From assembly GCF_025699125.1 (NCBI RefSeq), contig NZ_JAILWC010000004.1, forward strand, positions 63,374 through 95,373: a stretch of DNA of 32,000 nt, written 5' to 3'. Below are positions 15,703 through 31,317 of this stretch, piece by piece; positions within the stretch are counted from its first letter, which is position 1, and each line of letters opens with the position of its first letter. Below the pieces are notes generated by a model that was given only the letters and a program-made list of their open reading frames with translations, did not search any database and was not told the origin of the DNA. The translations under genes and the position numbers were made by a program. This stretch comes from Nitrosopumilus sp. Its GTDB lineage: Archaea; Thermoproteota; Nitrososphaeria; Nitrososphaerales; Nitrosopumilaceae.

Positions 15703-16634
15703 GTAGTATTCCATTCCTCCACTTTTTCTCTCCAATTTAATGCAAGATCATTTACTCCTTTTTTACGTAATTCTTCGCCCACATTTTTGCCAAGAGACGC
15801 AGGATCATTTTTGCTACCAGTTTTGGTTACATGTAATGATTGTTTTCCATCAACAGAAAATGCAGTAACTGTAAGAGTCATTTCAGTTCCACTGGATTTT
15901 GCATACGCACCAAGAGGAAATCTACATCCAGAATCTACATAGTTGGATAATGCTCGCTCTGCTTCAATTTCTAATCTAGAGTCTGAATCTTCAATTTTTT
16001 TTAACATAGAGATTGTGTCTATATCATCAGATCTGGCAACAATTGCTATTGCACCTTGCCCAGGAGATGGAGAAAAATCATGTATCGATAATGGTGAGAA
16101 CTTTATATCAACACCTAATCTTGAAATTCCAGCTTGTGCAAGAACGATAGCGTCAAAATTTTCTCCAGATGTTTTTTTTATTCTTGTTTCAATATTTCCG
16201 CGTATTGGTTTTACTGTAACATCAGGTCTTTTTCTTGAAACTTGAACTGCGCGTCTAAGTGAGCTGGTTCCAATAACTGCACCTTTTTTGATATTTTCCA
16301 AAGATGAGCCATCGGATGAAATAAAGACATCATTTACTGCTTCACGTTTTGGAATACACGCGATCATGAGACTTTCATCTAGCTCCGATGGAACGTCTTT
16401 TAGACTATGAACTGCAAAGTCTACTTCTTTTTGCGATACTGCTCTATCTACTTCTTTTTCAAATATCCCTTTTTGGTTTATTGTAAATAATGGCCTTGAA
16501 TCAGTATCGCCTTTTGTAGTGATGGATTTAATTTCATATTCACATCCAGGATTCACTTTTTTTAGTTCGGATATCACCCAATTTGTCTGAGCTACTGATA
16601 ATTGACTTCCTCTAGCACCAACTTTGTACTTCAA
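15699..16634 (-). CDS. hemC: Hydroxymethylbilane synthase (porphobilinogen deaminase)
   Basis: GARGSQLSVAQTN, HSLKDVP and GTSSLRR blocks. The TTG start overlaps the hemL stop (TTGA). Confidence 0.9.
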   Translation of the reverse strand: MKYKVGARGSQLSVAQTNWVISELKKVNPGCEYEIKSITTKGDTDSRPLFTINQKGIFEKEVDRAVSQKEVDFAVHSLKDVPSELDESLMIACIPKREAVNDVFISSDGSSLENIKKGAVIGTSSLRRAVQVSRKRPDVTVKPIRGNIETRIKKTSGENFDAIVLAQAGISRLGVDIKFSPLSIHDFSPSPGQGAIAIVARSDDIDTISMLKKIEDSDSRLEIEAERALSNYVDSGCRFPLGAYAKSSGTEMTLTVTAFSVDGKQSLHVTKTGSKNDPASLGKNVGEELRKKGVNDLALNWREKVEEWNTT

Positions 16635-17908
16635 TGTTTCACCGATTTTAATGCTGCATCATATGCATCAAGTGTCTTGTTTAGATCATTTTCAGTGTGA
16701 GCGTCAGATAGAAAAACTACTTCAAACTGCGATGGCGCAATGAATATTCCCTTTTTCAATAATGCTCTGAACATTTTTTGAAATTTCTTAGAATCTGCTT
16801 TTTTTGAAGTTTCGTAATTAATCACGGGTTTGTTTGTAAAGAAAATCTGAAACATCGATGCGGTAAAGTTAATTTGATGCGCAATATGCATGTCAGTGGC
16901 CATATCATCCAATGCAGTGGTAAATAAAAGATTGAATCTCTCAAGTTTAGAGTAGAGTTTGTTTTTCAATTTGTTTATTGTCTTAATTGAGCTAATTGCA
17001 GCACTAACAGATATAGGATTTCCAGCAAAAGTACTTGCCTGATAGACTTTACCCCCAGGTGACAACAAATCAATTATTTCTTTTCTTCCACCAACTGCAG
17101 CAATTGTAAAGCCATTGCTGAGAGCTTTGGCCATAGTAGTAATATCAGGTTTAATTCCAAAATGCTCTTGAGCTCCACCAGGAGCTACCCTAAATCCTGT
17201 AACTACTTCATCAAAAATTAGCGGGATGTTGTTTTCTTTAGTAATTTTTCGCAAATCATAGAGAAAATTTTTTTCAGGCAGAATCAAACCCATGTTAGCT
17301 AAAATTGGTTCCACGATGACTCCTGCAATGTCTTTATTTTGTTTAATTGTCTTTTGAAAATCTTCAATGTTGTTGTACTGTACAACCAAAGTATTTTTTG
17401 AAACTTCATCTAAGCCACCATCTGAAACAGAAATGCCATTATGTGCCGAGCCAGATCCTGCTTTTACTAATACAGAATCATGTGCGCCATGATAACATCC
17501 TTCAAATTTGATTATCTTTTTCTTTTTTGTAAAACCACGTGCCAATCTAATTGCAGTCATTGTTGCTTCTCCTCCAGTGTTCACTAATCGAACTTTGTCA
17601 ATCGATGGAAAGTTTCCAATGATTAATTTTGATAATTCAATTTCAGCTTCTGTTGGAGTACAATAAAGAGTTCCTTTAGAAAGTTGATTTGAAACCGCAT
17701 TGATAATCTCTTTTCTTTTATGCCCCAACAGTAAAGCACCATATCCATTACAAAAATCAATATACTTTTTGTTCTCGACATCCCAAAGATATGCACCGCT
17801 TGATTTTTTTGTAAAGAATGGATATGGTTCAAAATACCTAACAGGGCTATTCACTCCTGACGGGATGACTTTCTTTGAATCTGAGAATAGTTTTGAATTA
17901 GTCATCAA
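16631..17908 (-). CDS. hemL: Glutamate-1-semialdehyde 2,1-aminomutase
   Basis: GVNSPVR N-terminal block, class-III aminotransferase body with FDEVVTGFR and a PLP-lysine region (TTMAKALSNG). Confidence 0.9.
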   Translation of the reverse strand: MMTNSKLFSDSKKVIPSGVNSPVRYFEPYPFFTKKSSGAYLWDVENKKYIDFCNGYGALLLGHKRKEIINAVSNQLSKGTLYCTPTEAEIELSKLIIGNFPSIDKVRLVNTGGEATMTAIRLARGFTKKKKIIKFEGCYHGAHDSVLVKAGSGSAHNGISVSDGGLDEVSKNTLVVQYNNIEDFQKTIKQNKDIAGVIVEPILANMGLILPEKNFLYDLRKITKENNIPLIFDEVVTGFRVAPGGAQEHFGIKPDITTMAKALSNGFTIAAVGGRKEIIDLLSPGGKVYQASTFAGNPISVSAAISSIKTINKLKNKLYSKLERFNLLFTTALDDMATDMHIAHQINFTASMFQIFFTNKPVINYETSKKADSKKFQKMFRALLKKGIFIAPSQFEVVFLSDAHTENDLNKTLDAYDAALKSVKH

Positions 17909-18280
17909 AATAGACTAAACAAGGTCATTATTATTCGTAAAAGATATGATTTTTAGAGTTTTTTAGGTATGGAATATCCAATTAAAGGATCATCAGATTT
18001 TTCTTGTTTGCACCAACAATTCGGACTACAATTTCTCGACTTTTCAGTCATCAAACTCTCCTTTAATGTTCTTCCCATCATTGCAACCAAGATGATTCAC
18101 TTGCGTGGATTCACGTACAGCCTGTTTGATGATGTCCGCTACTTCTTTTGACAATAGGAGTTTTGAAAATGAGGAATTGTCATGCTCAAGGAAGGGAGTA
18201 GCGCACATTAATCATACATATACAAAATTTGTTAAAACATGATTGTAATTATTTTCCATAACAAACTAAAAGTTTGTAAT

Positions 18281-18288
18281 CTATATAG
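18281..18288. promoter_or_regulatory. CTATATAG palindrome (fourth copy in the window)
   Basis: Read directly (CTATATAGA). Lies in the ORF-poor 17.9-18.5 kb spacer, 73 bp upstream of a 54-aa minus-strand micro-ORF. Confidence 0.3.
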
Positions 18289-18296
18289 AAAAAAGT

Positions 18297-18419
18297 TCAT
18301 CCAAGCTTGTTACAAATATCGTCACAGTTTGGACAAAATAATATATCGTCTGCAAACTTTCCACGTCTTAAAATCTCGGTTTCATTATTTCCACATTTTT
18401 CACATTGTATTTTTTGCAT
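18297..18419 (-). CDS. Small zinc-ribbon protein (40 aa), not in the ORF track
   Basis: My translation is MQKIQCEKCGNNETEILRRGKFADDILFCPNCDDICNKLG*. It has two CxxC knuckles (C6/C9 and C29/C32) plus C36. Confidence 0.45.
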   Translation of the reverse strand: MQKIQCEKCGNNETEILRRGKFADDILFCPNCDDICNKLG

Positions 18420-18493
18420 TAGACTAGGTATTTTATTTTAGATCTAAAAAAATAACCTAAAGGATTTATGGTAAATATGTAAATAGAAACAAT

Positions 18494-18661
18494 TTACATA
18501 GTTGACGAATTAAAACCATATTCTTGTTTACAATCATGAAATTTCGGCAATGATTTTCCATTACAATTATGACAGACATCTTGAAACAAAAAATTACAGT
18601 GCTGGCACTTTAGATGATTTTTTATAAACCAACCACATGTTCTACAACATTCATCAGGCAT
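18494..18661 (-). CDS. Small cysteine-rich (multi-CxxC) protein
   Basis: MPDECCRTCGWFIKNHLKCQHCNFLFQDVCHNCNGKSLPKFHDC.. has 9 Cys in about 45 aa, arranged as CxxC pairs. The ATG at 18661 overlaps the end of the upstream gene by 8 nt; the ORF is open up to 18694. Confidence 0.55.
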   Translation of the reverse strand: MPDECCRTCGWFIKNHLKCQHCNFLFQDVCHNCNGKSLPKFHDCKQEYGFNSSTM

Positions 18662-19156: not shown

Positions 19157-19840
19157 CTATAATTCTCGTTTTCTTTGCATTTGAAATTTTTTCCTAAACA
19201 AAAATGCAACGATAATTGTTCCAACATAAGGCGCACTCCAATATAGCCAAAGATTTTCCAGCACTCCAGATAACAATGCAGGAGCCAATGCCCTTGCAGG
19301 ATTCATTGACGCACCAGAAATAGATGCCAAGAAAAAGATATCCAAACCAACAATACCACCTATTGCAACTCCACTAAACCCCTTCAATCCTTTCGTGTAC
19401 ACTACAGTAAAAATAACTGCCATCAATAATGCAGAAGCCAACACTTCAACGGGAAATATTAAAAATAGTGAATAGTCATAGTTGGGAGCATTTGCACCAA
19501 GGTTTGCTTCTTTTCCAATAAACGTCATTACAAATAAAGAACCAAGAATTGCGCCGATTATTTCTGCTGCAAAGTACCACATAATTTGAATTTTTGATAT
19601 GTGTCCTGTAATGTAATATCCTATTGTGACTGCAGGATTAAAATGGGCAAGAGATATTTTCCCAAAAGAATAGACCCCTATAATTAACGCAATAAATGGA
19701 GTAACTGCAGCAAACCAAATTCCATAGTAACCTCCAATTTGAACGTCATAGACTATGGAGCCAGTTGCAAATATTACAAGAATAAATGTTCCAATCAACT
19801 CAACTGCAAATATTTGAAGATTAGAATAAGCCATGATCAT
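19157..19840 (-). CDS. MIP-family channel (aquaporin/aquaglyceroporin), probable arsenite channel by context
   Basis: Two NPA boxes (HFNPAVT and SMNPARA) and six predicted TM helices. Four-nt overlap with arsC. Confidence 0.85.
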   Translation of the reverse strand: MIMAYSNLQIFAVELIGTFILVIFATGSIVYDVQIGGYYGIWFAAVTPFIALIIGVYSFGKISLAHFNPAVTIGYYITGHISKIQIMWYFAAEIIGAILGSLFVMTFIGKEANLGANAPNYDYSLFLIFPVEVLASALLMAVIFTVVYTKGLKGFSGVAIGGIVGLDIFFLASISGASMNPARALAPALLSGVLENLWLYWSAPYVGTIIVAFLFRKKFQMQRKREL

Positions 19841-20238
19841 ACATCTAATTTTTTTATGAGATTCAAAACTTCATTTTTAATCTGATCACGAATTTCTCTT
19901 ACCTGTTCAATGTCTTTGTTTTTTGGATCAGTTATATCCCAATTAATTATATCTTTGACAAAAAGTGCAGGGCATGATTCTTGATCCATACAACCCATAT
20001 TCACGGTAATTGATTGATCAATCATTTCATTTGTCAACACTTTTGGTTTTTGTTTTGCAATGTCTATTCCAATCTCTTTCATTGTTTGAACTACTAGTGG
20101 ATTAAGTTCAGATTTGGGTTGAGTTCCAGCACTTATCACATCAAAATGGGGAGCAAACTCTCGAAGAAATCCTTCTGCCATCTGGCTTCGGCCAGCGTTT
20201 TCTACGCACACAAAAAGAACTTTTTTCGGCTTAGCCAT
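19837..20238 (-). CDS. arsC: Arsenate reductase, LMW-PTPase (thioredoxin-coupled ArsC) family
   Basis: P-loop VLFVCVENAGRSQMAEG (CX5R-S), and a downstream Cys pair in NMGCMDQESCP equivalent to the Cys82/Cys89 relay of Bacillus/Staphylococcus ArsC. The preferred start is MAKPKKVLFVC at 20238; the ORF is open up to 20262. Confidence 0.8.
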   Translation of the reverse strand: MAKPKKVLFVCVENAGRSQMAEGFLREFAPHFDVISAGTQPKSELNPLVVQTMKEIGIDIAKQKPKVLTNEMIDQSITVNMGCMDQESCPALFVKDIINWDITDPKNKDIEQVREIRDQIKNEVLNLIKKLDV

Positions 20239-20257
20239 AAAATCAAATAAATATTGG

Positions 20258-20283
20258 TTCATATAAATTTAAATTGATATGAA
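20258..20283. promoter_or_regulatory. 26-bp near-perfect palindrome (TTCATATaAATTTAAATTgATATGAA) in the arsR/arsC divergent region; candidate ArsR operator
   Basis: 12 of 13 positions are self-complementary by hand check. It covers the arsR ATG (20279) and the upstream in-frame ATG of the arsC ORF (20262). Confidence 0.45.
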
Positions 20284-20578
20284 TGGAATTAGTCTTTTAA
20301 AATGTATTTGTGATGAAACAAGGTTTGGAATTCTAGAGTTATTGCAGAAAAACAAAGAATTGTGTGTAAATGATTTTGTCGAGAAATTAAAAAAAGATCA
20401 ACCGCTAGTATCCCACCATCTAAAGACATTGAAAAAATGCGGTATTGTCAAATCAAGAGATGAAGGAAAAAAGGCAATGTATTCAATTTCAAATAATCAA
20501 TTATCAGTGTTAATATCAAGTGTTACAAATGCAAGTAAAAAAATTCCGGTTTTGTGTTCTGAGGATTCTTGTTGTTAA
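20279..20578 (+). CDS. arsR: ArsR/SmtB-family transcriptional repressor
   Basis: Winged-HTH pattern (ETRFGILELL....ELCVNDF......QPLVSHHLKTLKKCGIV..R.EGK...YS) and a C-terminal Cys cluster, LCSEDSCC. Confidence 0.85.
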   Translation: MNGISLLKCICDETRFGILELLQKNKELCVNDFVEKLKKDQPLVSHHLKTLKKCGIVKSRDEGKKAMYSISNNQLSVLISSVTNASKKIPVLCSEDSCC

Positions 20579-20877
20579 AACTTTTCAGTCCTAACAACAC
20601 CAACATCACTAACATAAAGTACAATAGCAAAATTCGCAAACAGCGTTCGGGATATTTCCTCAACAACATCAGATAATTTCTCTTCACGCATAATTACTTC
20701 AACTTTAACATTTTTTTCATTTTTAAAACCCTGACCACGTAATCCACGTGCACCATTTCCATCAACCTCATAAGTCGTATATCCTGTTATTTCATGATTT
20801 TTTAAAATTTCAAGAATATTTTTTTGAGCAAGAATTTCACATACAATCGTAAGTAATTTTACATTGTAGAGTTTCAT
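20575..20877 (-). CDS. sbtB: PII-like signal-transduction protein (SbtB-like)
   Basis: 100 aa with a beta-alpha-beta PII-like pattern and a T-loop-like stretch, GNGARGLRGQGFKNEKN. ATGA overlap with the upstream transporter gene. Confidence 0.6.
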   Translation of the reverse strand: MKLYNVKLLTIVCEILAQKNILEILKNHEITGYTTYEVDGNGARGLRGQGFKNEKNVKVEVIMREEKLSDVVEEISRTLFANFAIVLYVSDVGVVRTEKF

Positions 20878-21959
20878 ATCCAGTCCTTTATGATATAATT
20901 GAATAAGTCTATCGATCCTTCTCCGGTGTGAACAATGGATGAGATTGCAAACATTATTGGCAATAATACAATGATGTTGTAAGGAAATGTAATTCCCAAT
21001 GCAGATGTAATGTAAAGACTAGGTTTTGCTTGAGGGATTGTATGACGCAATACTGCAGGCGCTGCAATAAACGAAGCACTAGCCAATAACAAACCAAACA
21101 TTACTGCACCACCAAGACTCAATCCCAGTGCGGTTGCAACTAAAACTCCAACAATTCCATTAAAAGTAGGCATGATTACTGCAAACGCAGTCAAAAAAAC
21201 GCCCACTTTTTTCATATCATCTAATCTTTGACCTGCAATTATTCCCATTTCAATCATGAAGATCACTATAGCACCAGTAAACATTTCATCAAAAACAATT
21301 TTGATTGAACTAAATCCATTTTCCCCAATAATGTATCCTATAATGATGCTTCCAAGCAGAATGACGATAGCTTTGCCAGTGATTGATTCATGTAAAACTT
21401 GAGACAGTTTTGTTTTGCTGCTTTGTATTCCAATTTCAATGTCAGAGGCATCATCTGTTGTAAAAGGTTTTTTCTTTACTTTGATTTGTTTTGAAACTGC
21501 CATGTTAGTCAAAAATATTGCCAGGATAAATGCAAGGGGTTCCAGTACAGCTAAAATAGCTGCAAGATACCCTTCTGATGAAACACCTTGGTTTTTAAGA
21601 AAAGATAATCCAACTGAAAAAGTTACAGCACCTACTGCGCCATATGTAGATGCTAAAGCATACGAATCAAAGATATTGAATTTTCCCAATCTTCTCAAAA
21701 TTTGGTAATGGTTTAACGTAAACAAAAGCGAAAGTCCAATTGCGGCCAACATTGGAATCAGCATATTCTCAAATCCAGTATTCCTCATTTCAATTCCACC
21801 ATGAAGACCAATTGCGGCTAAAAGATAGATTGGCAAGAATTCAGAAATTGCTTCAGGTATTTTCAAATCAGATTTTATTCTAGCTGCAATGATTCCAAAC
21901 AAAAAGAATAGGATAATTGGAGTAAGGAGGTTAGATTGAATTAATTGTAAAATATCCAT
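20874..21959 (-). CDS. sbtA: SbtA-like (Sbt_1 family) sodium-dependent bicarbonate/anion transporter
   Basis: ~10-TM protein with a central hydrophilic loop. N-terminal blocks SDLKIPEAIS and AIGLHGGIEMRN resemble cyanobacterial SbtA (IPEAIS ... GLTGG..IRN). Paired with the PII-like gene. Confidence 0.6.
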   Translation of the reverse strand: MDILQLIQSNLLTPIILFFLFGIIAARIKSDLKIPEAISEFLPIYLLAAIGLHGGIEMRNTGFENMLIPMLAAIGLSLLFTLNHYQILRRLGKFNIFDSYALASTYGAVGAVTFSVGLSFLKNQGVSSEGYLAAILAVLEPLAFILAIFLTNMAVSKQIKVKKKPFTTDDASDIEIGIQSSKTKLSQVLHESITGKAIVILLGSIIIGYIIGENGFSSIKIVFDEMFTGAIVIFMIEMGIIAGQRLDDMKKVGVFLTAFAVIMPTFNGIVGVLVATALGLSLGGAVMFGLLLASASFIAAPAVLRHTIPQAKPSLYITSALGITFPYNIIVLLPIMFAISSIVHTGEGSIDLFNYIIKDWI

Positions 21960-22006: not shown

Positions 22007-22666
22007 TCAGTCTTGTTTTGTATGTGATGCTATTCGTTCTTCACTAGGGCGGTGTTTTCCAGTAACTATGTAATTTATTGCATCACTCATGAATACGGCA
22101 TGATCACCAATTCGTTCCAAATATCTAAGCAATAGTGCCTCTGCCAAAGCACATTTTGTATTATTTGATTCAATTAGTTTTGGCAATCGTTCTTTGTATA
22201 TCCTATCAATTACTTTTTCATCTTCTCTGATTTTGATTGCTTTGCGAACATCAAGTTCTGCAAAAGACAACACAGCTTCTTTTATCATGTGTTTTACTTT
22301 TTTTGTGGATTCAATAAGTGAAGCATTGGTACATTTTGAGACATCACCAAACAAATCTCTAACTTGGGTTATATCATAAGCATATCTTCCAAATCTAGAA
22401 AAAGCATAAGATATTTCAGTGGAAGATCTTATGAATCTAAAATCATCTGCAACTGGCTGGTATTTTAAAAGCATGTCAAAGGTTAAATCTTCAACTTCAT
22501 AGTATTTTGAACGAATGGAATTAGACAATGAATGAACTTTATCTATTGTGTTTGTTCCATCAAGATAAGAGTCAATTGCAAGAGATATTGATTCGACTAC
22601 CATATCACCCATCTCCCCCATGATAAAAGAGAGTTTTTGAAGAGAAGGATCAATTAATCGAGTCAT
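22007..22666 (-). CDS. phoU: Phosphate transport system regulatory protein PhoU
   Basis: Two PhoU repeats with RFGRYAYDI and ERIGDHAVFM helices. Lies immediately after pstB. Confidence 0.85.
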   Translation of the reverse strand: MTRLIDPSLQKLSFIMGEMGDMVVESISLAIDSYLDGTNTIDKVHSLSNSIRSKYYEVEDLTFDMLLKYQPVADDFRFIRSSTEISYAFSRFGRYAYDITQVRDLFGDVSKCTNASLIESTKKVKHMIKEAVLSFAELDVRKAIKIREDEKVIDRIYKERLPKLIESNNTKCALAEALLLRYLERIGDHAVFMSDAINYIVTGKHRPSEERIASHTKQD

Positions 22667-23500
22667 TTATCCGAAATGCCCCTGTACATATTTTGCAGTC
22701 AAATCATTTTTTGGATCTGTAAAGAGTTTTTTTGTTTCTCTAAATTCAATTAGGTCACCCAAATACATGAAACCAGTGTAATCAGACACTCTGACTGCCT
22801 GTTGCATGTTATGTGTTACAATGATTATGGTATACTCTTTTTTTAATTCGGTAATTGTTTCTTCAATTTTTTGAGTTGCAATAGGATCGAGTGCGGATGC
22901 TGGTTCGTCCATCAATAAAACTTCAGGTTGTATTGCCAACGCCCGCGCAATACATAGACGTTGTTGTTGGCCTCCAGACAACTCAATAGCAGATTTGTTC
23001 AAGTCATTTTTTACTTCATCCCACAAATAAGCCATTTTTAGCGAATCTTCTACTATTTCATTTAGAATTTTTTTATCACGCACGCCGTTTAGTTTCAAAC
23101 CTGCTGTAACATTATCATAAATGGACATTGTTGGGAATGGGTTTGGTTTTTGAAAGACCATCCCAACTTTTCTTCGGTGATAAATAGGATCTATGGATTT
23201 ATCATAAAGATCAATGTTATCAATCATAACTTTCCCTTCAACTTTGGCATTTTTTGTCATATCATGCATTCTGTTAAGACATCGCAGGAAGGTAGTTTTG
23301 CCACATCCGGATGGACCAATAAGGGCCGTAACAGATTTTTCTTTAAACTTCATTGTAACGTTTTTGACTGCAGGAATCCCATCATATCTAATTGTGACAT
23401 TTTCTGCAACCATTTTGTATTTTTCAGAATCAACAACAGATGATGGAGTTGATGGGATTTGTTCTTCGGTGTTTGCAGGTTTAATACTCAATGCAGTCAA
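22667..23500 (-). CDS. pstB: Phosphate ABC transporter ATP-binding protein
   Basis: Walker [10 protein letters not shown], signature LSGGQQQR and Walker [13 protein letters not shown], plus the PstB-typical tail KYVQGHFG. Confidence 0.92.
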
Positions 23501-24429
23501 TTTTTAGCATGCATTCCTTTCTTAATTAATTGTCCGAAAATTCCTTGCTTTCCCTTCCTATTTGCAAAAAAGTATCTAACTGCCAGATTAATTCCCAGAA
23601 TTATTATAATTAAAACTAGAGCAGAACCCCAACCCTGTAATTGCGCACTGTCATAAGGCAGTAAAGACAATCTCCAAATTCTCAAAGGCAGTGCATCCAT
23701 TGGAACATCCATGCTGCTAAAGAATTGGCTGCTTCCAAGAATAGTCATAATTAACGGAGCGGTTTCACCACCAATTCTCGATACAGACAATAAAATTCCA
23801 GTAATCATTCCGCTTTTTGCAGCAGAAATTACAATTCTAAAAGTAATTACCCATTTTTTCAAACCCAGAGCAGTTCCAGCTTCACGATAAGTCACAGGAA
23901 CCATTTTCAGAGATTCTTCAGTAGTTCTTGCAACAATGGGGAACATGATTAAAGATAATGCAAATGCACCTGCCCATACTGAAAAATGACCAAGAAGTAA
24001 CACAATTACTAAAAATGCAAAGATACCAAGAACAATAGATGGGAATTCCATGAACACATCATTGAAGAATCTTATATTTCGTGCAAGCCTATTGTCGCCA
24101 TATTCAGATAGATAAATTCCAGACATGACACCTATCGGAACTCCAATTAAGCTTGAGAGCCCAATTATTATCAAAGTGCCCTGAATTGCAGGTCCAATGC
24201 CACCTTCACCAGAACCAATAGAGCCAGGTACTTCGGTTAAAAATTCATAGCTTATTGCAGCAAATCCATTTTTGAATACTTCGACTAGAATGCTTCCAAG
24301 AGGAATAATTGCAATTATTACACATGCAAAAACTATGATTCGAACTATTTTATCAACAACAAGTCTTTTCTCAACATTATTTTTGAATAGAGCCCTATAC
24401 TCTTGCCTTTTTTCATTAGTAGTACTCAA
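23497..24429 (-). CDS. pstA: Phosphate ABC transporter permease PstA
   Basis: Six-TM BPD-transporter permease with an EAA-like loop ([13 protein letters not shown]). Overlaps pstC and pstB by 4 nt each. Confidence 0.85.
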
Positions 24430-25403
24430 TTGTTAATTGCACCCTCCTTTACTTTCATCATTCTAGTAACCAGCAAGTGTGCAACTACATTGATTGCAAT
24501 TGCAATGAGTAAAAGAACTAACGCAACTCCAATCAAAGCAGGAAGATGCAATGATGCAGGGGATGCTTCAACAAATTCATTTGCGATGATACTAGACATT
24601 GTTTGACTTGGTTTGAATAGAGACGAAGGGATTGCAGCTATACCAGTTGCATTGCCAATCAACATTGTCACTGCCATTGTTTCACCAACAGCTCTTCCGA
24701 GTCCAAGAATCGACGCACCAATCAAGCCAGTTTTAGAGTACGGAAATACAGCTAGCTTGAACATTTCCCATTTTGTTGCACCTAACATGTATGCAGCTTC
24801 TCTTTGTTGTTGAGGTACTGCTTTCATTACTTCACGAGATACTGCTGAAACGGTTGGAATAATCATTATAGCTAAAATTACACTTGCAGTAATTATGTCA
24901 AGGCCAAAAGGAGTTCCCGAGAATAAAAATATGGAATCACCAAATAAATCGTGCAGTGGTTCTTCAACCCAGTCCTTAAAGTAAATTCTAAAAACAAAAA
25001 GTCCCCATAGTCCATAAATCACACTTGGAACAGCAGCTAAAAGTTCAACAATAAAACCCAAAGGACCACCTATTTTTGCGGGAGCATCAGAGATGAACAT
25101 TGCAATTCCAATACTTAACGGAACGCCAATCAACATTGCAAGTGAGGCAGTAACTAGTGTACCAAAAATGTAGGGTAATGCACCAAAAGATTCCCTACCT
25201 TCAACTGCATTCCAATCAGTACCAGTGATAAATGACAATCCATCTTCCTCCCAAATTGGATATGATTCAGAGACCAATTGAAAAACCAACAATGCAATCA
25301 TGACTAAAACATAAACGCCTGCTACAGTTGCGCCAATCTTGAAAATTTTATCTGAAATTTGGCGTTTACCATGCTTTTCAGGATTTAGATTAATCCGTTC
25401 CAC
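24426..25403 (-). CDS. pstC: Phosphate ABC transporter permease PstC
   Basis: Permease with an EAA loop (QREAAYMLGATKWE). First gene of the pstCAB-phoU string. GTG start. Confidence 0.85.
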   Translation of the reverse strand: MERINLNPEKHGKRQISDKIFKIGATVAGVYVLVMIALLVFQLVSESYPIWEEDGLSFITGTDWNAVEGRESFGALPYIFGTLVTASLAMLIGVPLSIGIAMFISDAPAKIGGPLGFIVELLAAVPSVIYGLWGLFVFRIYFKDWVEEPLHDLFGDSIFLFSGTPFGLDIITASVILAIMIIPTVSAVSREVMKAVPQQQREAAYMLGATKWEMFKLAVFPYSKTGLIGASILGLGRAVGETMAVTMLIGNATGIAAIPSSLFKPSQTMSSIIANEFVEASPASLHLPALIGVALVLLLIAIAINVVAHLLVTRMMKVKEGAINN

Positions 25404-25467: not shown

Positions 25468-25483
25468 CTATATAGATCCTCAT
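25468..25483. promoter_or_regulatory. CTATATAG palindrome fused to GATCCTCAT, in the pstC <> AbrB-PhoU divergent region
   Basis: Read directly: CTATATAG at 25468-25475 and GATCCTCAT at 25475-25483. It lies 65 bp from the pstC start and 48 bp from the TTG start of the regulator gene. Confidence 0.4.
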
Positions 25484-25522: not shown

Positions 25523-26566
25523 TTGGAAACGTTAGAAAGCTCCAAACAAACAAGACGAATGCAGCTTAGTGGAGGCTCCACATACATTATTTCTCTTCCA
25601 AAGAATTGGATTGAAGAGTTAAAGATCAAAGTAGGGGAAAATGTCACGATTATTAAAAATTCTAACAAATCATTAACACTTATCCCTAAAGAGGGGGAAA
25701 ATCAAACAAAAAAAAGTACAGCAGTTGTACTATCCAATCAAAAAGATTCGGGGGAATCAATAAAGAGGAAAATTATTGCAGCATATCTTTCAGGTTACAA
25801 AACCATCAAAATTACAACAAAAGGGATGAGAATTCCAGCAGAACATTCTAGGAGCATCAGAGAATTGGTCAGGTCTACTATGATTGGAACGGAAATTGTA
25901 GAGTCAAGTTCTGAAAACATCATTATCCAAATCCTCACCAGACTTCCAGAATTGTCATTTGATACTGCATTGAAGAGAATGTATTTGATGGCAAATAACA
26001 TGGTGCTTGAAGCAATAGAATCACTAGAAGAGGTAGATATGAGTCATGCAGATGAAGTTGTAAATATGGATGATGAAGTAGATAGATTTGGCCTGTATAT
26101 GAGACGTAATTTAGTTTTAGCAGTAGGAAATGAAAATTTTCTACAAGACATGGGACTGAGAAAACCATCTGACTGTCTAGGACATAGGGCCATAGTTAGC
26201 AGAATTGAAAGAATTGCAGATCATGCGTCACTAATTGCAAAAAGAACAAAATTCATTGAAGGTAAAATAGATTCAAAAATTTTTGTAAAAATAAAAAAAC
26301 TCTCAGAGAAATCACTTGAGGTATTTGAGAAATCAATTACAGCGGTTCAAGAGCATGATTTTGAAAAAGGAGAAAGGGTGGCAGAAAAAGTCAACCAAGT
26401 GATTGAGGAGGAAAAACAAATTATGAGTAAAATCAAAGAAACAGAAAAAAATTCCACAATAATCAGATTTGTGTTAGAAGACTTGAGAAGAATTGCAGAG
26501 TATTCAAGCGATATTGCCGAAGTCGCAATAGATGAGAATATTCAAAATATCATTACTGAAGAATGA
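25523..26566 (+). CDS. AbrB/SpoVT-domain plus PhoU-domain fusion protein (putative phosphate-responsive transcription regulator)
   Basis: N-terminal looped-hinge-helix pattern (GGSTYIISLPKNWIEELKIKVGENVTI). C-terminal half carries two PhoU-type helices (RIERIADHASLIA and LRRIAEYSSDIAE). TTG start at 25523; alternative ATG at 25559. Confidence 0.75.
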   Translation: METLESSKQTRRMQLSGGSTYIISLPKNWIEELKIKVGENVTIIKNSNKSLTLIPKEGENQTKKSTAVVLSNQKDSGESIKRKIIAAYLSGYKTIKITTKGMRIPAEHSRSIRELVRSTMIGTEIVESSSENIIIQILTRLPELSFDTALKRMYLMANNMVLEAIESLEEVDMSHADEVVNMDDEVDRFGLYMRRNLVLAVGNENFLQDMGLRKPSDCLGHRAIVSRIERIADHASLIAKRTKFIEGKIDSKIFVKIKKLSEKSLEVFEKSITAVQEHDFEKGERVAEKVNQVIEEEKQIMSKIKETEKNSTIIRFVLEDLRRIAEYSSDIAEVAIDENIQNIITEE

Positions 26567-26604: not shown

Positions 26605-28206
26605 CTACTCTACGTAGAATCCTTGAGCCCAGTCATCAGTCTTTCTTAAATCACTGGTGCTGGAAGTTTTTGCTTTTTCAATATTGAACATTGCATCATA
26701 TGCGGGATTGTTTGGACGGTATCCTTGACATTCAAAGTCAAAAATATTTTCTAGTGCGAATTTATTTTTAACATAACTCTCTTCAGAGTTTGGATTTGTA
26801 GAAACATCGTAATCTGTTGCCCTACAGCTTGAATAGTTGAAACCGCGAATTTCTTTTTCTCCAGATACTATCTTGACATCAATGTCAACGAGATCACGGT
26901 TTTGAGTTCCAATTATTCCTTGAACTTTTAATCCGTCATCAACATGCTTGTATAGCAATGGATAATCACCTACAATTCCTCTCAACTCAACAGTTGGATA
27001 TGCTGTCTTTCTTGTAAATTCGGTTCCAACATCCTCTGTTGCTGTAAGCACATTACTTTGTTTGAACATGGAAAACTCTGCAGTTTCCACGCCATAGTCA
27101 AAAGTAAATGTGACAAAAGCACTCAAATCCTTATCGGTGTTTTGAAGTGGTTCCTCATACTCATTTACAACCTTAGTTGTTTTCCAAGTAGTATCTCCTT
27201 GAAGAGCACCATAATTCACATTCAATGGTTTTAGACCTGAACATTCAAATCCTAATTGATATGCGGTTACAAATCCACTCTTTTTTGTAAATCCTTCTTC
27301 TTTATCTGTAAGAGTCGTAATTTTTGCACTCTCCACATGACAACTTCTGAAATCGAAGCCTCTCAATGTTTTATCACCATTAGTAAATTCCACTAGTGCA
27401 TCAAAATCATCATTAGATTGTGCAGTTAGTCCAGATACTTTTCTAGCATTATCAATTTTGCTTTGCAACATTGGATAATTATCCAAAACTCCTTCTACTG
27501 TGAATTCAGCCTTAGCATTTCGTCCAGTTTCACCATATCCTGAATCTAGATTAAATGATGGGAATTCAATTCTTTCCTTTCCTTCATTAAAGGAGAAGGT
27601 TACTGAAGTTTTCACATCGTTTGCATATTTGAATGCAGATTCACCATGATCTATAATGGTCCCAGGAGTAATTCTTGCGGAATCATTATTGGAATTTAGT
27701 CCACTACATACAAAGTCAATTTTATCAACTATTGCAAATCCGACACCAGCAAAATAACTTTCATAGTCATTTGAGTCAAGTGTTTCGACTTGATAGTTGT
27801 CAACTCGACAATTGGTATAAGCAAGGGAGATTACATTTTCACCGTTTTTTACAAAATTAGCATCAACATCAAAGTATTTGAACTGATGATCAAATGCTGC
27901 GTTTGAAGAACGGTAGATATACGCCTCATCCATTGCCTTGTGCAATAATGGAGAATCTGTTACTGTGCCTTCCACTGAAAATGAAACGCCAGCATCATCA
28001 ATCATGTTTTCGCCCATTTTAAAAACAGGGAATTCATATGTTTCAGTTCCATCTCTGAATTGAAATGTCAATACCGGCATTACATCGCCAATCATTTTGT
28101 ATCCTTCACTTTCTTCTGCATATGCGTTTGAAAGGTCAAAAGAGGTTACGGCAAATAATGCAACAATGCTAAAAATTGCAATGTTCTTTACGTTTTTGTA
28201 AGTCAT
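26605..28206 (-). CDS. Secreted protein of unknown function: signal peptide plus three tandem ~155-aa two-cysteine domains
   Basis: Signal peptide ..FDLSNAYA|EE. The repeats start at about residues 45, 202 and 365 (VLTFQF / VTFSF / VTFTF). Cys pairs fall at 133/167, 289/322 and 461/493. No family recognised. Confidence 0.75.
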   Translation of the reverse strand: MTYKNVKNIAIFSIVALFAVTSFDLSNAYAEESEGYKMIGDVMPVLTFQFRDGTETYEFPVFKMGENMIDDAGVSFSVEGTVTDSPLLHKAMDEAYIYRSSNAAFDHQFKYFDVDANFVKNGENVISLAYTNCRVDNYQVETLDSNDYESYFAGVGFAIVDKIDFVCSGLNSNNDSARITPGTIIDHGESAFKYANDVKTSVTFSFNEGKERIEFPSFNLDSGYGETGRNAKAEFTVEGVLDNYPMLQSKIDNARKVSGLTAQSNDDFDALVEFTNGDKTLRGFDFRSCHVESAKITTLTDKEEGFTKKSGFVTAYQLGFECSGLKPLNVNYGALQGDTTWKTTKVVNEYEEPLQNTDKDLSAFVTFTFDYGVETAEFSMFKQSNVLTATEDVGTEFTRKTAYPTVELRGIVGDYPLLYKHVDDGLKVQGIIGTQNRDLVDIDVKIVSGEKEIRGFNYSSCRATDYDVSTNPNSEESYVKNKFALENIFDFECQGYRPNNPAYDAMFNIEKAKTSSTSDLRKTDDWAQGFYVE

Positions 28207-28240
28207 TGAGAAACAAAAAAGAAATACAACCTATAAGCTG

Positions 28241-28298
28241 GATCCTCATTTTATCCGAGTGGAACATATGTGTAGATAGTACTCGTAATACTATATAG
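28241..28298. promoter_or_regulatory. GATCCTCAT (28241-28249) and CTATATAG (28291-28298) upstream of the triple-repeat gene
   Basis: Read directly. These are the same two words as in the pstC/regulator spacer. CTATATAG lies 85 bp upstream of the ATG at 28206. Confidence 0.35.
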
Positions 28299-28330
28299 AG
28301 AATTTTTAATTCTAAAAATTTGTTTCAAGA

Positions 28331-28390
28331 AATTAAAATAAAATTTAAGAACAAACTAAATTAAAAAAATAAAATTAAAAAGAAAAGAGT
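28331..28390 (-). terminator. Oligo-T-rich tract downstream of pstS (candidate archaeal terminator)
   Basis: On the minus strand, T5-T7 runs follow directly after the pstS stop (for example T7 at 28363-28369). Archaeal termination typically uses oligo-T. Confidence 0.35.
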
Positions 28391-29641
28391 TTAGACTTTG
28401 AGAATTCCTTGTTTAATTAGGAATTGTAGTCCGTTGATGTAGTCTTGATCAGATATCAGTCCTTCTGACCACCATTTTGCATTGTCTCTGATCCATTTTG
28501 GAATCTCTAGCGATCCAGTGCTTGTTGCTTTGTAATCCCAAAGCTTTTCGCCATCATACGTTACTTTGGATAATCCCTGTTTTCCTAGTTCTACAACCTT
28601 ATCGGCAAGTGGAACATATAGTAAACTTGAGGAGAATTCTTGACCATCAGTTATCATCCAATGAATCATGTGGATTACAGCTTTTGCTTGATCTTTGTTT
28701 TTAGTTACTTGTTTCAGATCATCATATACAAGAAGATATGTGAAGCTTGCAATCGGATATGAATCTGGACCGGGGGCATTAACAATTGTTACATGAGCCC
28801 AATTATCTTCAGATGCTGGCAAAGTATCTGCCACCCCACTAGATGCAGCAGAAATGCTGTCTAATGTAGGTTCGATGAATGCAGTTTTGTCAGCATTTTG
28901 AATTGATGCATAGCTCATTCCTGTTTGGAATGCATATGCAAGTTCAATGTAACCAATTGCGTATTCAGTGGATTTTACAATTCCAGCAACACCTTCATTT
29001 CCTGCGGATGCAAGACCTGAAGGCCATGGAACCGATTTTCCTGCACCTATCTTCTCATCCCAAGTTGGACTTACAGTAGATAGGTAATCTGTAAAGACGA
29101 AAGTTGTCCCAGAACCATCAGATCTATGTGCTGTAACAATATCTTTAGCAGGAAGATTCAATCCAGGATTTTCTGCAGTGATTGCAGGGTCATTCCATTT
29201 TGTAATTTCTCCCAAGAATATTTTAGAGACAACATCTGCTGTTAGTTTTAGTCCTTTGTTTGGAACTTCAGGGATGTTGTAAGCAACTACTACGCCGCCG
29301 ATTGATTCGGGGATGTGTAGGGTTCCCGGAGCTAATTCTCTTTCAGATTCCTTCATAGGTGCATCGGATGCTGCAAAGTTTACGGTTTTTTCAATGTGTT
29401 GTTTAATTCCACCGCCACTTCCAATCGATTGGTAGTTAAGATTTACATTGTCGTATGCATTTTTGTACTCAACTCTCCACAAATCAATCAGAGGGAATGG
29501 AAACGTTGCACCTGCCCCTGTCAAATTGAATTCAACGTTTGGGTTGGGTACATCGGGCATTGAAGAAGCGTTTGCGCTTAATGGTGGCAAGATAGCAACA
29601 AGTGTTGCGATCAAAAGTATTGATGTTATTTTTGCTCTCAT
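28391..29641 (-). CDS. pstS: Phosphate-binding protein PstS with a C-terminal ~40-aa extension
   Basis: Signal peptide, then PstS blocks (GAGATFPFPL, YQSIGSGGGI, FAASDAP, HRSDGSGTTF). It ends with the extra tail IPKWIRDNAKWWSEGLISDQDYINGLQFLIKQGILKV. Confidence 0.88.
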   Translation of the reverse strand: MRAKITSILLIATLVAILPPLSANASSMPDVPNPNVEFNLTGAGATFPFPLIDLWRVEYKNAYDNVNLNYQSIGSGGGIKQHIEKTVNFAASDAPMKESERELAPGTLHIPESIGGVVVAYNIPEVPNKGLKLTADVVSKIFLGEITKWNDPAITAENPGLNLPAKDIVTAHRSDGSGTTFVFTDYLSTVSPTWDEKIGAGKSVPWPSGLASAGNEGVAGIVKSTEYAIGYIELAYAFQTGMSYASIQNADKTAFIEPTLDSISAASSGVADTLPASEDNWAHVTIVNAPGPDSYPIASFTYLLVYDDLKQVTKNKDQAKAVIHMIHWMITDGQEFSSSLLYVPLADKVVELGKQGLSKVTYDGEKLWDYKATSTGSLEIPKWIRDNAKWWSEGLISDQDYINGLQFLIKQGILKV

Positions 29642-29714: not shown

Positions 29715-29722
29715 CTATATAG
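29715..29722. promoter_or_regulatory. CTATATAG palindrome upstream of pstS
   Basis: Read directly (CTATATAGA), 74 bp upstream of the pstS ATG at 29641. Confidence 0.35.
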
Positions 29723-29727
29723 ATTAT

Positions 29728-31317
29728 TTATGATTCGCAATTTATCAGCAGATCAGTTTGAGAATCTATTGGAGAGTAACACCCATCAGAGTCATCTCCG
29801 CCATCCATCACATCAGATCCAGAATTTGAATAAAGAATATCATATCCTGAATCACCTTTTAACACATCATTTCCCGAATTGCCCATTATGGTATCATTTC
29901 CATTATTTCCATAAATTACATCATCACCGTCACCACCAAAAATACAATCATTCCCATCATTGCCGTTAATGATATCAACACCGGCCAACCCAAAGATCAG
30001 ATCATCTGCAGATGTGCCTTGAATAAAGTCATCACCATCAGTTCCTACTATCATGTTATAATCAGAGTAAACATGTCCGCAGGCATTAATGGTGATGGTC
30101 TGGTATGTTTCTGCAGTATTGCCAGCATTGTCAAATGCAATCCAAGTAACCTTACTTACACCTAGAGAGAATTCTTCAGGAGCATTATTCAAAATTACTT
30201 TGACTCCACTTTCAGTATCAGCAGCTAATGCCTGACCAATATCTACGAAAGTCAATAATCCAGTTGCATCCAGAATCATGTTGCTTGGGGCCATGATTGT
30301 GGGTTCAATTTTATCAGAAGAATAATCCTCGCGGATTTCAGGTTCGATTATTTCAACTATTTCAGAAACTTCTGGTTCAACATAAAACGGAGTTTCAAGA
30401 GAGTAAATTTTGTGTCCTGCAGAATCTACAACAAGTAACTCACCATTAATGCCCAATGTAATATCAGTTGGAGAACTAAACATTCGAGGATATGGCCCAT
30501 TTTTTTCAAAAATATTAAGAGTCAAACCAATGTCTTGTTCAAGATGTAAAATTCTACCATTATCTGAATTTATAACATAAATTGCTCCGTTAGGATCAAC
30601 TTCAATTCCCGAGGGTGAAAAAACATAATTCAATCCACGAAATTGAAATGACTTTATGAATGAGCCATCCGAATCAAATTTTTCGATTTTGCGATTTCCT
30701 TTATCAGTCACATACACATATCCTTGTTCATCAACATCAATTCCAATTGCAGTAAGAAATTGACCTGAACCCATTCCACTTGTACCAAATGATAAAACAA
30801 ATTCGCCGTCAGAAGTAAATTTTTGAATTCTTTGATTACCAGTATCTACAACATAAACAAAGTTATCAGAATCAACTGCAATGCCATTTGGATATTTGAA
30901 TTCCCCGTCATGTATTCCTTTACTGCCCCATTGATCAGCAAACGTTCCATTAAGATAGAATTTTTGAATTTTATGCAAGTCATGATCTGCAACAAAAATA
31001 AAATTACTACTCACTGCAATTCCAGAAGGATAGTGAAATTCTCCAGGCAATGTTCCACTTTGCCCCCAATGAGTAAGATATTGACCATCACTAGAGAATT
31101 TTTGAATTCGCTTATTGCCCAAATCACTTATGTATGAATTTCCATCTTCATCAACTGCAATAAATTCAGGATACGAAAAATGCCCAGGTTTTGATATTCC
31201 AAACTGACCCCACTCAGATACCAAATCATAATCTCCTAGGGCAAATGAAGATGGGACAAATGCACTAAACGCTAAGAATATTGAAAAAACCATGACAAGC
31301 AGGACAAACTTTGACAA
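29728..31317 (-). CDS. Secreted NHL-repeat beta-propeller / HYR-like domain / RTX (hemolysin-type Ca-binding) repeat protein
   Basis: Signal peptide. Six NHL blades (G.F..P.GIAVD..GN.YV.D..N.RIQKF, residues ~44-306). HYR-like segment (~338-411: P.I.AP....DA......A.D..SGV......F.LG...VTW.A.DNAGNTA). Nonapeptide GxDGDDxIxG-type repeats (~425-510). Confidence 0.8.
   Translation of the reverse strand: MSKFVLLVMVFSIFLAFSAFVPSSFALGDYDLVSEWGQFGISKPGHFSYPEFIAVDEDGNSYISDLGNKRIQKFSSDGQYLTHWGQSGTLPGEFHYPSGIAVSSNFIFVADHDLHKIQKFYLNGTFADQWGSKGIHDGEFKYPNGIAVDSDNFVYVVDTGNQRIQKFTSDGEFVLSFGTSGMGSGQFLTAIGIDVDEQGYVYVTDKGNRKIEKFDSDGSFIKSFQFRGLNYVFSPSGIEVDPNGAIYVINSDNGRILHLEQDIGLTLNIFEKNGPYPRMFSSPTDITLGINGELLVVDSAGHKIYSLETPFYVEPEVSEIVEIIEPEIREDYSSDKIEPTIMAPSNMILDATGLLTFVDIGQALAADTESGVKVILNNAPEEFSLGVSKVTWIAFDNAGNTAETYQTITINACGHVYSDYNMIVGTDGDDFIQGTSADDLIFGLAGVDIINGNDGNDCIFGGDGDDVIYGNNGNDTIMGNSGNDVLKGDSGYDILYSNSGSDVMDGGDDSDGCYSPIDSQTDLLINCES

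Follow-up and report, generated by a model that had tools for sequence, protein, structure and literature searches.

Marine ammonia-oxidising archaea (AOA) belong to the most numerous cells of the ocean. Their phosphorus use and physiology are poorly characterised (PMC7490402). A locus of Nitrosopumilus sp. raises the question why a gene for an unassigned, exported-type protein should lie in the middle of a phosphate-uptake (pst) system, the genes of which are normally contiguous. The locus is part of a stretch of 32,000 nucleotides (nt; RefSeq assembly GCF_025699125.1, contig NZ_JAILWC010000004.1, positions 63,374 to 95,373), here called the window, to which all coordinates refer. The gene, designated X533, occupies positions 26605-28206 on the minus strand, starts with ATG, and encodes a triple-module protein of 533 amino acids (aa). 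It is preceded by pstS (28391-29641, minus; Pfam family PBP_like_2). On its other side lie a convergent gene for a putative regulator with a SpoVT/MazE-type AbrB domain and two PhoU domains (25523-26566, plus; Pfam), and then pstC, pstA, pstB and phoU (22007-25403, minus). phoU was identified by a direct scan, and pstC, pstA and pstB by their translations and by synteny with Pfam-annotated relatives. This placement had been given in an initial annotation of the sequence, which regarded X533 as inserted into the pst locus and suggested a phosphate-starvation-induced extracellular protein, e.g. a binder or scavenger of a phosphorus compound or a surface partner of PstS; Pfam confirmed the gene order. 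As a whole, the observations are best explained if X533 is an envelope protein of a phosphorus-acquisition regulon that acts as a ring upstream of the transporter, a proposal to which we assign an even chance of being correct.

Genomic context of X533

A common frame was found across 72 genome loci, i.e. genes for an ABC-2 permease and an NHL/RTX protein, pstS where present, X533, a variable cassette, and genes for an SbtA-like permease and a P-II protein. The arrangements were tallied for the 53 assessable loci. X533 is followed by a DUF47-pit pair in 24 loci, by a split pst system of the window type in 13, by contiguous pstSCAB-phoU genes in two, and directly by sbtA, with no transporter, in three (L004, L024, and L034); 11 loci have other contexts. 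A survey of gene neighbourhoods had been proposed in the initial annotation as a check of the phosphate link, and in the present one the homologues co-localise with pst or pit, directly beside a transporter for inorganic phosphate (Pi), in 39 of the 53 loci, pit being commoner than pst. A reading of the pit-paired loci as “pst-less” was rejected, as their 1.8-kb gap is filled by genes for a DUF47/PhoU_div protein and a PHO4/PiT transporter.

Because pst, pit or no transporter at all can surround X533, it is X533 that is the constant element and the phosphate transporter that is the exchangeable one, which reverses the notion of an insertion into the pst locus. The pst and pit content of marine AOA has been found to track the phosphate concentration (PMC7490402), and the exchange of transporters beside X533 matches this pattern.

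The other contexts add further phosphorus-related genes. In L029, phnD (139.5 bits versus a cut-off of 112), phnC, and phnE (241 versus 216.7 bits) are located just upstream, and L067 has a divergent phnD-type gene. An ABC importer follows the X533 homologue in L054 and L063; its best matches are aminoethylphosphonate systems, with scores far below the cut-off. A Metallophos/5′-nucleotidase-like gene lies 1 kb from the homologue in L043. Relatives with a single module (see below) occupy the same slot, followed by abrB-phoU and pstCAB-phoU in L074 and L075, and placed after the ABC-2 and NHL genes and before DUF47 and PHO4 in L076. The association with phosphorus genes postulated initially has thus been strengthened, by the 39 loci with adjoining Pi transporters, the phn-linked copies, the slot of the single-module genes, and the promoter element described in the next section.

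The more specific idea that X533 is a surface partner or chaperone of PstS has become very improbable. It would agree with the position of the gene directly downstream of pstS in the window and in 12 other loci, and with a single-module gene in L080 that is divergent from pstS. It is at odds with the 24 pit-paired loci, none of which has a pstS within 10 kb, with the three loci devoid of a nearby transporter, and with the copies next to phnD. Because most genomes pair X533 with pit and have no pstS nearby, a partnership with PstS is not the general role of the protein.

A palindrome shared by X533 and transporter promoters

The region upstream of X533 (28207-28390, minus) contains T-rich runs just past the pstS stop codon, followed by the conserved blocks TCTATATAG (at -92), TATCTA (about -70) and GCTTATA (about -33), for which reason X533 very probably has its own promoter. 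The palindrome CTATATAG is found in this region (28291-28298, about -91 from the start codon), upstream of pstS (29715-29722, -81), and in the divergent spacer between pstC and abrB-phoU (25468-25475, at -72 and -54, respectively). The window contains four copies compared to 0.27 expected, a number that was reached in none of 100 shuffles, and three of the four are located in spacers of the pst locus. Of the two sequence words that the initial annotation had described as shared between upstream regions, CTATATAG is therefore significant. The other, ATGAGGATC, occurs exactly in two spacers of the window and is not general in other genomes, which retain no more than a loose AATGA.G block.

In 1.03 Mb of related loci, 106 of 117 CTATATAG sites are located at X533, pstS, pstC/abrB-phoU or DUF47-pit, at nearly fixed distances. 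X533 is preceded by 44 sites (42 at -90 to -92, the others at -73 and -100), DUF47-pit by 33 (at -62), and pstS by 13 (at -81), while 16 lie in the spacer between abrB-phoU and pstC (at -54 and -72). The remaining 11 are mostly counterparts of the fourth site of the window. The palindrome is present upstream of X533 irrespective of whether the neighbour is pst, pit or no transporter (L004, L024, and L034), and also upstream of the non-syntenic copy in L032; L043 has a version with one mismatch at the same position. In the distant single-module loci CTATATAG still marks the pst and pit promoters, and it is less regular at the single-module gene itself (an exact copy in L079 and one with a single mismatch in L076). 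With its 8 bp, the palindrome resembles an archaeal TATA box, and it may be either a specialised TATA box or an operator; the copy between abrB-phoU and pstC could serve both directions. Motif and linkage together suggest co-regulation by phosphate, and we consider it probable that X533 belongs to a phosphorus regulon.

The fourth site of the window (18281-18288) is an orphan in the intergenic region 17909-18653, upstream of hemL (16631-17908) by about 370 nt. Inverted repeats (TTTGTAA/TTACAAA) flank the site, which is conserved in L026, L028, L051, L053, L057, L059, and L061. No open reading frame of at least 25 aa starts just downstream, and a search of the surrounding sequence against Rfam yielded only a sub-threshold C/D-box match (18008-18086, minus; 29.5 bits versus a threshold of 40). 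The site may belong to a further regulon member or be the promoter of a non-coding RNA. A second candidate element, the inverted repeat TTCTA-N4-10-TAGAA, was seen by eye upstream of non-syntenic copies and of phnD and other binding-protein genes; it was dropped, because 10 occurrences compared to about 4.8 expected are no clear enrichment and correspond to a density equal to that in canonical loci.

The same observations could also mean that X533 is a general structural or adhesion protein of the envelope or surface layer (S-layer) that has no role in phosphorus metabolism and happens to lie beside a hotspot of transporter exchange, with CTATATAG as a strong TATA box. The gene persists in the three loci without an adjoining phosphorus transporter and in unrelated contexts, and it diverges faster than the pst proteins of the same loci (44% versus 76-84% identity), as surface proteins often do. 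In addition, the likeness of CTATATAG to a TATA box, the conserved site upstream of hemL, and the acidic character of X533, with no obvious ligand site, would be in accord with a structural protein. We nevertheless regard this explanation as rather unlikely, because the 106 sites are concentrated at promoters of X533 or phosphorus transporters and not at those of the other ~20-40 gene families sampled. Furthermore, the link recurs independently with four phosphorus systems (pst, pit, phn, and a nucleotidase-like gene), and again for the single-module subfamily.

Modules and export signal of X533

The three modules are homologous and about 145 aa long, with boundaries, taken from the alignment and a structural model, that are near those proposed initially. 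Module 1 comprises residues 36-178 (27673-28101), module 2 residues 191-335 (27202-27636), and module 3 residues 356-507 (26686-27141), all on the minus strand. Pairwise Smith-Waterman comparisons of the three segments gave scores of 142-191, compared to 31-33 ± 5-6 for shuffled sequences (z = 20.0-29.4), and the observed scores were matched in none of 300 shuffles. A self-BLAST of X533 produced no off-diagonal match, so that the repeats are seen only by Smith-Waterman with shuffle controls. As the modules share only about 28-31% identity in spite of these high z values, the triplication is real but old.

Each module contains one pair of cysteines (Cys133/Cys167, Cys289/Cys322, and Cys461/Cys493), at exactly the residues listed in the initial annotation. 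All six are invariant in 61 of 61 homologues covering an identity range of 41-93%, and the two cysteines of the module are invariant also in 39 and in 61 single-module relatives (two alignments). Each module thus probably carries one disulfide.

Residues 1-30 (MTYKNVKNIAIFSIVALFAVTSFDLSNAYA, followed by E-E; 28117-28206, minus) have the features of a signal sequence, i.e. a basic n-region, a hydrophobic core of 15 residues, and an A-Y-A end before the two glutamates. Ala30 is invariant and Glu31 and Glu32 are at least 90% conserved among the homologues, and residues 1-34 have a predicted local distance difference test score (pLDDT) below 50 in the AlphaFold2 model. The Sec-type signal noted initially is therefore supported, and we infer from the sequence that X533 reaches the envelope by Sec export.

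The mature protein is acidic (isoelectric point 4.5), and no His/Asp/Cys metal-site pattern is kept across the modules. The most conserved motif of the family is DKEEGF (residues 301-306 in module 2; 27289-27306, minus), at the tip of a long β-hairpin; this loop, DKEEG(F/W/Y), is conserved in both single- and triple-module proteins. The same holds for the C-terminal tail S-S-x-D-L...W-x-D, represented in X533 by residues 508-533 with the motif S-S-T-S-D-L...D-W (26608-26685, minus).

Family members and architectures

With X533 as the query, a direct search gave 600 homologues (E ≤ 1e-3), of which those with a name are without exception “hypothetical protein” entries of Nitrosopumilus. A profile built from the three modules of the window was then compared with 1.84 billion representative sequences. 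The family is small, with 144 clusters at 50% identity, and every organism name recovered was that of an ammonia-oxidising archaeon, either Nitrosopumilus or Ca. Nitrosotenuis, both of the Nitrosopumilaceae. Literature searches retrieved nothing on the family.

Complete members have one, three or six modules. The one-module form (about 200-245 aa) consists of a signal sequence, the module, and the tail, and is the commonest cluster type. The three-module form has about 510-545 aa. The six-module form is represented by P0121 (1016 aa, six full modules), which is not the product of two genes read through, as no signal peptide is present within the chain. A distant Nitrosopumilus subfamily, matching the C-terminal half of the module, likewise has forms with three units (595-687 aa) and six units (1111-1148 aa). 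Apparent two-module entries mostly look truncated, i.e. the signal peptide is absent or a third module is partial. None of the three modules of the window is consistently the nearest to the single-module proteins, which thus give no indication of the order of duplications.

Two members have additional parts. P0126 (875 aa) has about 400 aa of K/P/T-rich low-complexity repeats and a transmembrane segment ahead of three modules, and P0176 (464 aa) has one module, an extension of 280 aa, and a C-terminal transmembrane helix. These predicted anchors fit an envelope location.

Predicted fold

The initial annotation could not place the module in any named family. At the sequence level this still holds: Pfam and NCBIfam scans of X533 gave only sub-threshold, unrelated matches, and comparisons of X533 (phmmer) and of the pooled-module profile with the PDB sequences retrieved nothing related. 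At the level of the predicted fold a placement has become possible. The AlphaFold2 model of X533, based on an alignment of 59 homologues, has a mean pLDDT of 73 and a predicted template-modelling (TM) score of 0.75, and shows four strands, a helix, and a very long hairpin per module. A Foldseek search of the PDB with the full model gave six matches with E ≤ 1e-3 (best E 4.7e-5), all covering a single module. They are tube-type chains of AFP, PVC/PlPVC1 and AlgoCIS or Hcp1 of type VI secretion systems (T6SS), with probabilities of 1.0 and target TM scores of 0.54-0.67. Modules were also matched to myophage tubes of the PDB. No multi-domain match of any quality to the PDB was found; PdpA-VgrG reached TM scores of 0.14-0.20 at a root-mean-square deviation (rmsd) of 17-18 Å.

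A second, independent model was computed for the single-module homologue P0288 (207 aa; alignment of 61 sequences), with a pLDDT of 79 and of more than 90 in the core. It had 47 matches in the PDB with E ≤ 1e-3, all to structures of contractile injection systems (CIS), T6SS, or the tails of tailed phages, the best being 6rao_F (E 2.6e-7); Hcp1 (8z7k) was matched at an rmsd of 4.6 Å. Against the viral models of BFVD 86 matches with E ≤ 1e-3 were obtained, and nearly every named entry in the top 50 is a tail-tube, gp19 or tail-completion protein. It is thus very likely that the modules have the tail-tube/Hcp β-barrel fold. The initial annotation had named, as a refutation of its hypothesis, a confident match in structure to a characterised family that has no relation to phosphate, and the tail-tube/Hcp fold is formally such a match. 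It names the fold of X533 and not its function, and leaves the genomic evidence in force.

Despite the fold, X533 was not filed in the Hcp/tube families, because it does not conform to them in sequence, in genomic context, and in cytoplasmic assembly. The exclusive matches to tube, Hcp and tail-completion proteins might suggest that X533 is what remains of a viral or contractile-injection tube gene that was domesticated and now serves as a phage decoy, receptor or defence protein, with a coincidental linkage to phosphate genes. Its signal sequence and conserved cysteine pairs disfavour cytoplasmic assembly, its chromosomal position is stable across genera, and inspection of gene content and Pfam matches revealed no sheath, baseplate or spike genes and no other viral genes in the window or the related loci (PADLOC and PHROGs were not searched). 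A domesticated tube remnant is therefore highly improbable.

It also appears quite improbable that X533 is a monomeric extracellular phosphoesterase, or a direct binder of phosphate or phosphonate, on a tube-like scaffold. The phosphorus-gene neighbourhood and the shared promoter word would suit such a protein, two glutamates that are invariant in each module could hold a metal together with the DKEEG(F/W/Y) loop, and weak matches to SGL and phytase-like families are seen in the adjacent NHL/RTX protein. The lack of a His/Asp/Cys site kept across the modules argues against it, as does the comparison of folds: Pfam, NCBIfam and Foldseek revealed no resemblance to the folds of phosphatases or binding proteins, no match to a periplasmic-binding-protein (PBP) profile was obtained, no PBP-type protein is among the significant fold matches, and none of the tube-fold matches in the PDB and BFVD is annotated as an enzyme.

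A possible role in phosphorus acquisition

As an envelope protein of a phosphorus-acquisition regulon, X533 would assemble like other tube-fold proteins into a six-module ring, in this case as a dimer of three-module chains, which would be located between the membrane and the S-layer. There it would act upstream of whichever transporter is present and would capture, concentrate or pass on phosphorus oxyanions. The module counts of 1, 3, and 6 fit a six-module ring (6 x 1, 2 x 3 or 1 x 6) and are indirect support, not proof; the ring assembly itself we rate slightly short of evenly balanced. As X533 is found with Pst, Pit and Phn alike, its action would lie upstream of any particular transporter. 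An enzyme or a simple Pi-binding protein is disfavoured by the acidic surface and by the lack of a conserved catalytic or anion-binding cluster, and a role as scaffold, conduit or cation-bridged capture device appears most plausible. Any specific biochemical mechanism is doubtful.

Several points weigh against the proposal. No obvious cluster of anion-binding or catalytic residues is present in the acidic mature protein, and the residues conserved across the modules are mostly hydrophobic, plus two glutamates. Four of eight single-module contexts (L073, L077, L078, and L079) do not contain recognisable adjoining phosphorus genes, and the triple-module copies of L032, L042, L045, L046, and L060 are not beside such genes. 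The background for CTATATAG is formed mostly by about 70 copies of one neighbourhood and about 200 kb of other contexts, not by a whole genome, and the element could be a strong TATA box common to highly expressed genes. The likeness to the tube fold is moderate (TM 0.5-0.67), no sequence-profile link to the Hcp/tube families was found with Pfam, NCBIfam and the PDB, and for the ring the fold and the module counts are the sole indications. Lastly, a literature search found no transcriptome or proteome of marine AOA under phosphate limitation.

A more far-reaching version of the proposal is that in AOA the tail-tube fold has been converted into a ring of six modules (6 x 1, 2 x 3 or 1 x 6) that is exported, locked by disulfides, and located in or under the S-layer. 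The dedicated task of this ring would be to capture or conduct phosphate and phosphonate, with arsenate as an incidental substrate, and it would be expressed via CTATATAG as an unrecognised archaeal phosphate-regulon element. A route of this kind may be needed because the S-layer of AOA favours cations such as ammonium. In its entirety this version is unlikely to be correct.

X533 is a candidate for a new component of archaeal phosphorus acquisition, from a conserved and unannotated family of putative envelope proteins tied to every type of phosphorus transporter that AOA carry. As a cis-element of a phosphate regulon in archaea, CTATATAG is a first candidate. The predicted occurrence of a tail-tube/Hcp fold outside any injection machine, in an exported-type protein, would be a use of this fold that has not been described before. 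The gene and its promoter might serve as a marker of the phosphorus status of AOA in metatranscriptomes.

Additional genes of the locus

Apart from the ABC-2 permease, NHL/RTX, pst, SbtA and P-II genes, the gene content of the window includes heme biosynthesis, PGK, SUF, MIP, and a low-molecular-weight (LMW) phosphatase. The related loci are similar in content, with heme, SUF, pst or pit, ABC-2, NHL, SbtA and P-II genes. The canonical PhoU encoded after pstB (22007-22666) is a second PhoU-type protein beside the AbrB(SpoVT)-PhoU-PhoU fusion; the fusion gene, which is divergent from pstC, is confined to loci with a split pst system.

The conserved upstream neighbour (29728-31317, minus; Pfam) encodes an exported protein with an NHL β-propeller and RTX Ca-binding repeats. 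It has weak matches to SGL (SMP-30/gluconolactonase) and phytase-like families (27.1 bits versus a cut-off of 27.6) and could be a Ca-dependent extracellular esterase; its gene is not preceded by CTATATAG. The counterpart in L076 has 1452 aa and HYR domains.

On the other side, the variable slot is bounded in nearly all loci by the genes for the SbtA-like Na+/bicarbonate-type permease (20874-21959, minus; Pfam) and the P-II-like protein (20575-20877), which together form an SbtA/SbtB-style pair (20575-21959). Just past this pair are the genes for an ArsC-type LMW phosphatase (LMWPc; 19837-20262) and, at 19157-19840, for a MIP channel. L076 has a MIP gene after pit, and the slot of L051 (11715-13146) contains an apparent arsR-arsC-MIP cassette, of which arsC and MIP were identified by Pfam/NCBIfam and arsR by eye only. 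Arsenate-handling genes thus seem to travel with the phosphate locus.

The PstS of the window ends with a WW-rich tail of about 40 aa (28391-28520), IPxWIxxNAKWWSEGxISDxDYIxGLQFLIxQGILKV. The same tail is present at the end of PstS in L080 (~2037) and of another protein in L067 (~18988), and in L029 it follows the signal peptide of PhnD (~5848). It has no Pfam match and does not occur in X533; it might be a module, specific to AOA, by which binding proteins are anchored or bind to the S-layer.

Small genes (about 110 aa) for TrmB/Lrs14/Sta1-like winged-helix proteins recur right beside non-syntenic copies of the family, i.e. in L029 (4959-5643 and 8932-9294), L054 (8379-8717), L067 (9476-9814), and L078 (6568-6903), and are candidates for local regulators.

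Comparison with known systems

X533 differs from the binding proteins PstS and PhnD in that it has neither the fold nor the profile of a type II PBP. Bacterial Pho-regulon genes with their Pho boxes and the pst-phoU and pit-DUF47 genes of AOA (PMC7490402) offer a parallel, because X533 adjoins pst or pit and has an upstream element in common with them. In contrast to the bacterial Pho regulon, PhoB and PhoR are absent here and the candidate regulator is the AbrB-PhoU fusion, the element is an 8-bp TATA-like palindrome, and X533 resembles no known Pho-regulon product.

With T6SS Hcp, the tube proteins of Afp, Pvc1 and AlgoCIS, and gp19 of phage T4, the modelled X533 module shares a β-sandwich, a flanking helix, and a long β-hairpin (Foldseek probability 1.0, target TM 0.5-0.67), and the six-fold ring of these proteins is compatible with the module counts of the X533 family. 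X533 differs from them by the lack of sequence-profile similarity, by its tandem triplication, and by a predicted signal sequence and an invariant cysteine pair, whereas the assembly of Hcp and tube proteins is cytoplasmic. Sheath, baseplate and spike genes are lacking in the window and the related loci, the named family members are all from AOA, and the neighbourhood and the promoter word are those of phosphate transporters.

The closest precedents for several such domains in one chain are pb6 of phage T5, which has two tube domains and is a trimer, and the gp27/VgrG hub, which has two tube-like domains and is also a trimer. X533 has three domains (six in P0121) instead of two and no role in a tail or spike. 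Common to all of them is the principle that, with several tube-fold domains per chain, fewer chains close a pseudo-six-fold ring, a principle that X533 would follow as a dimer.

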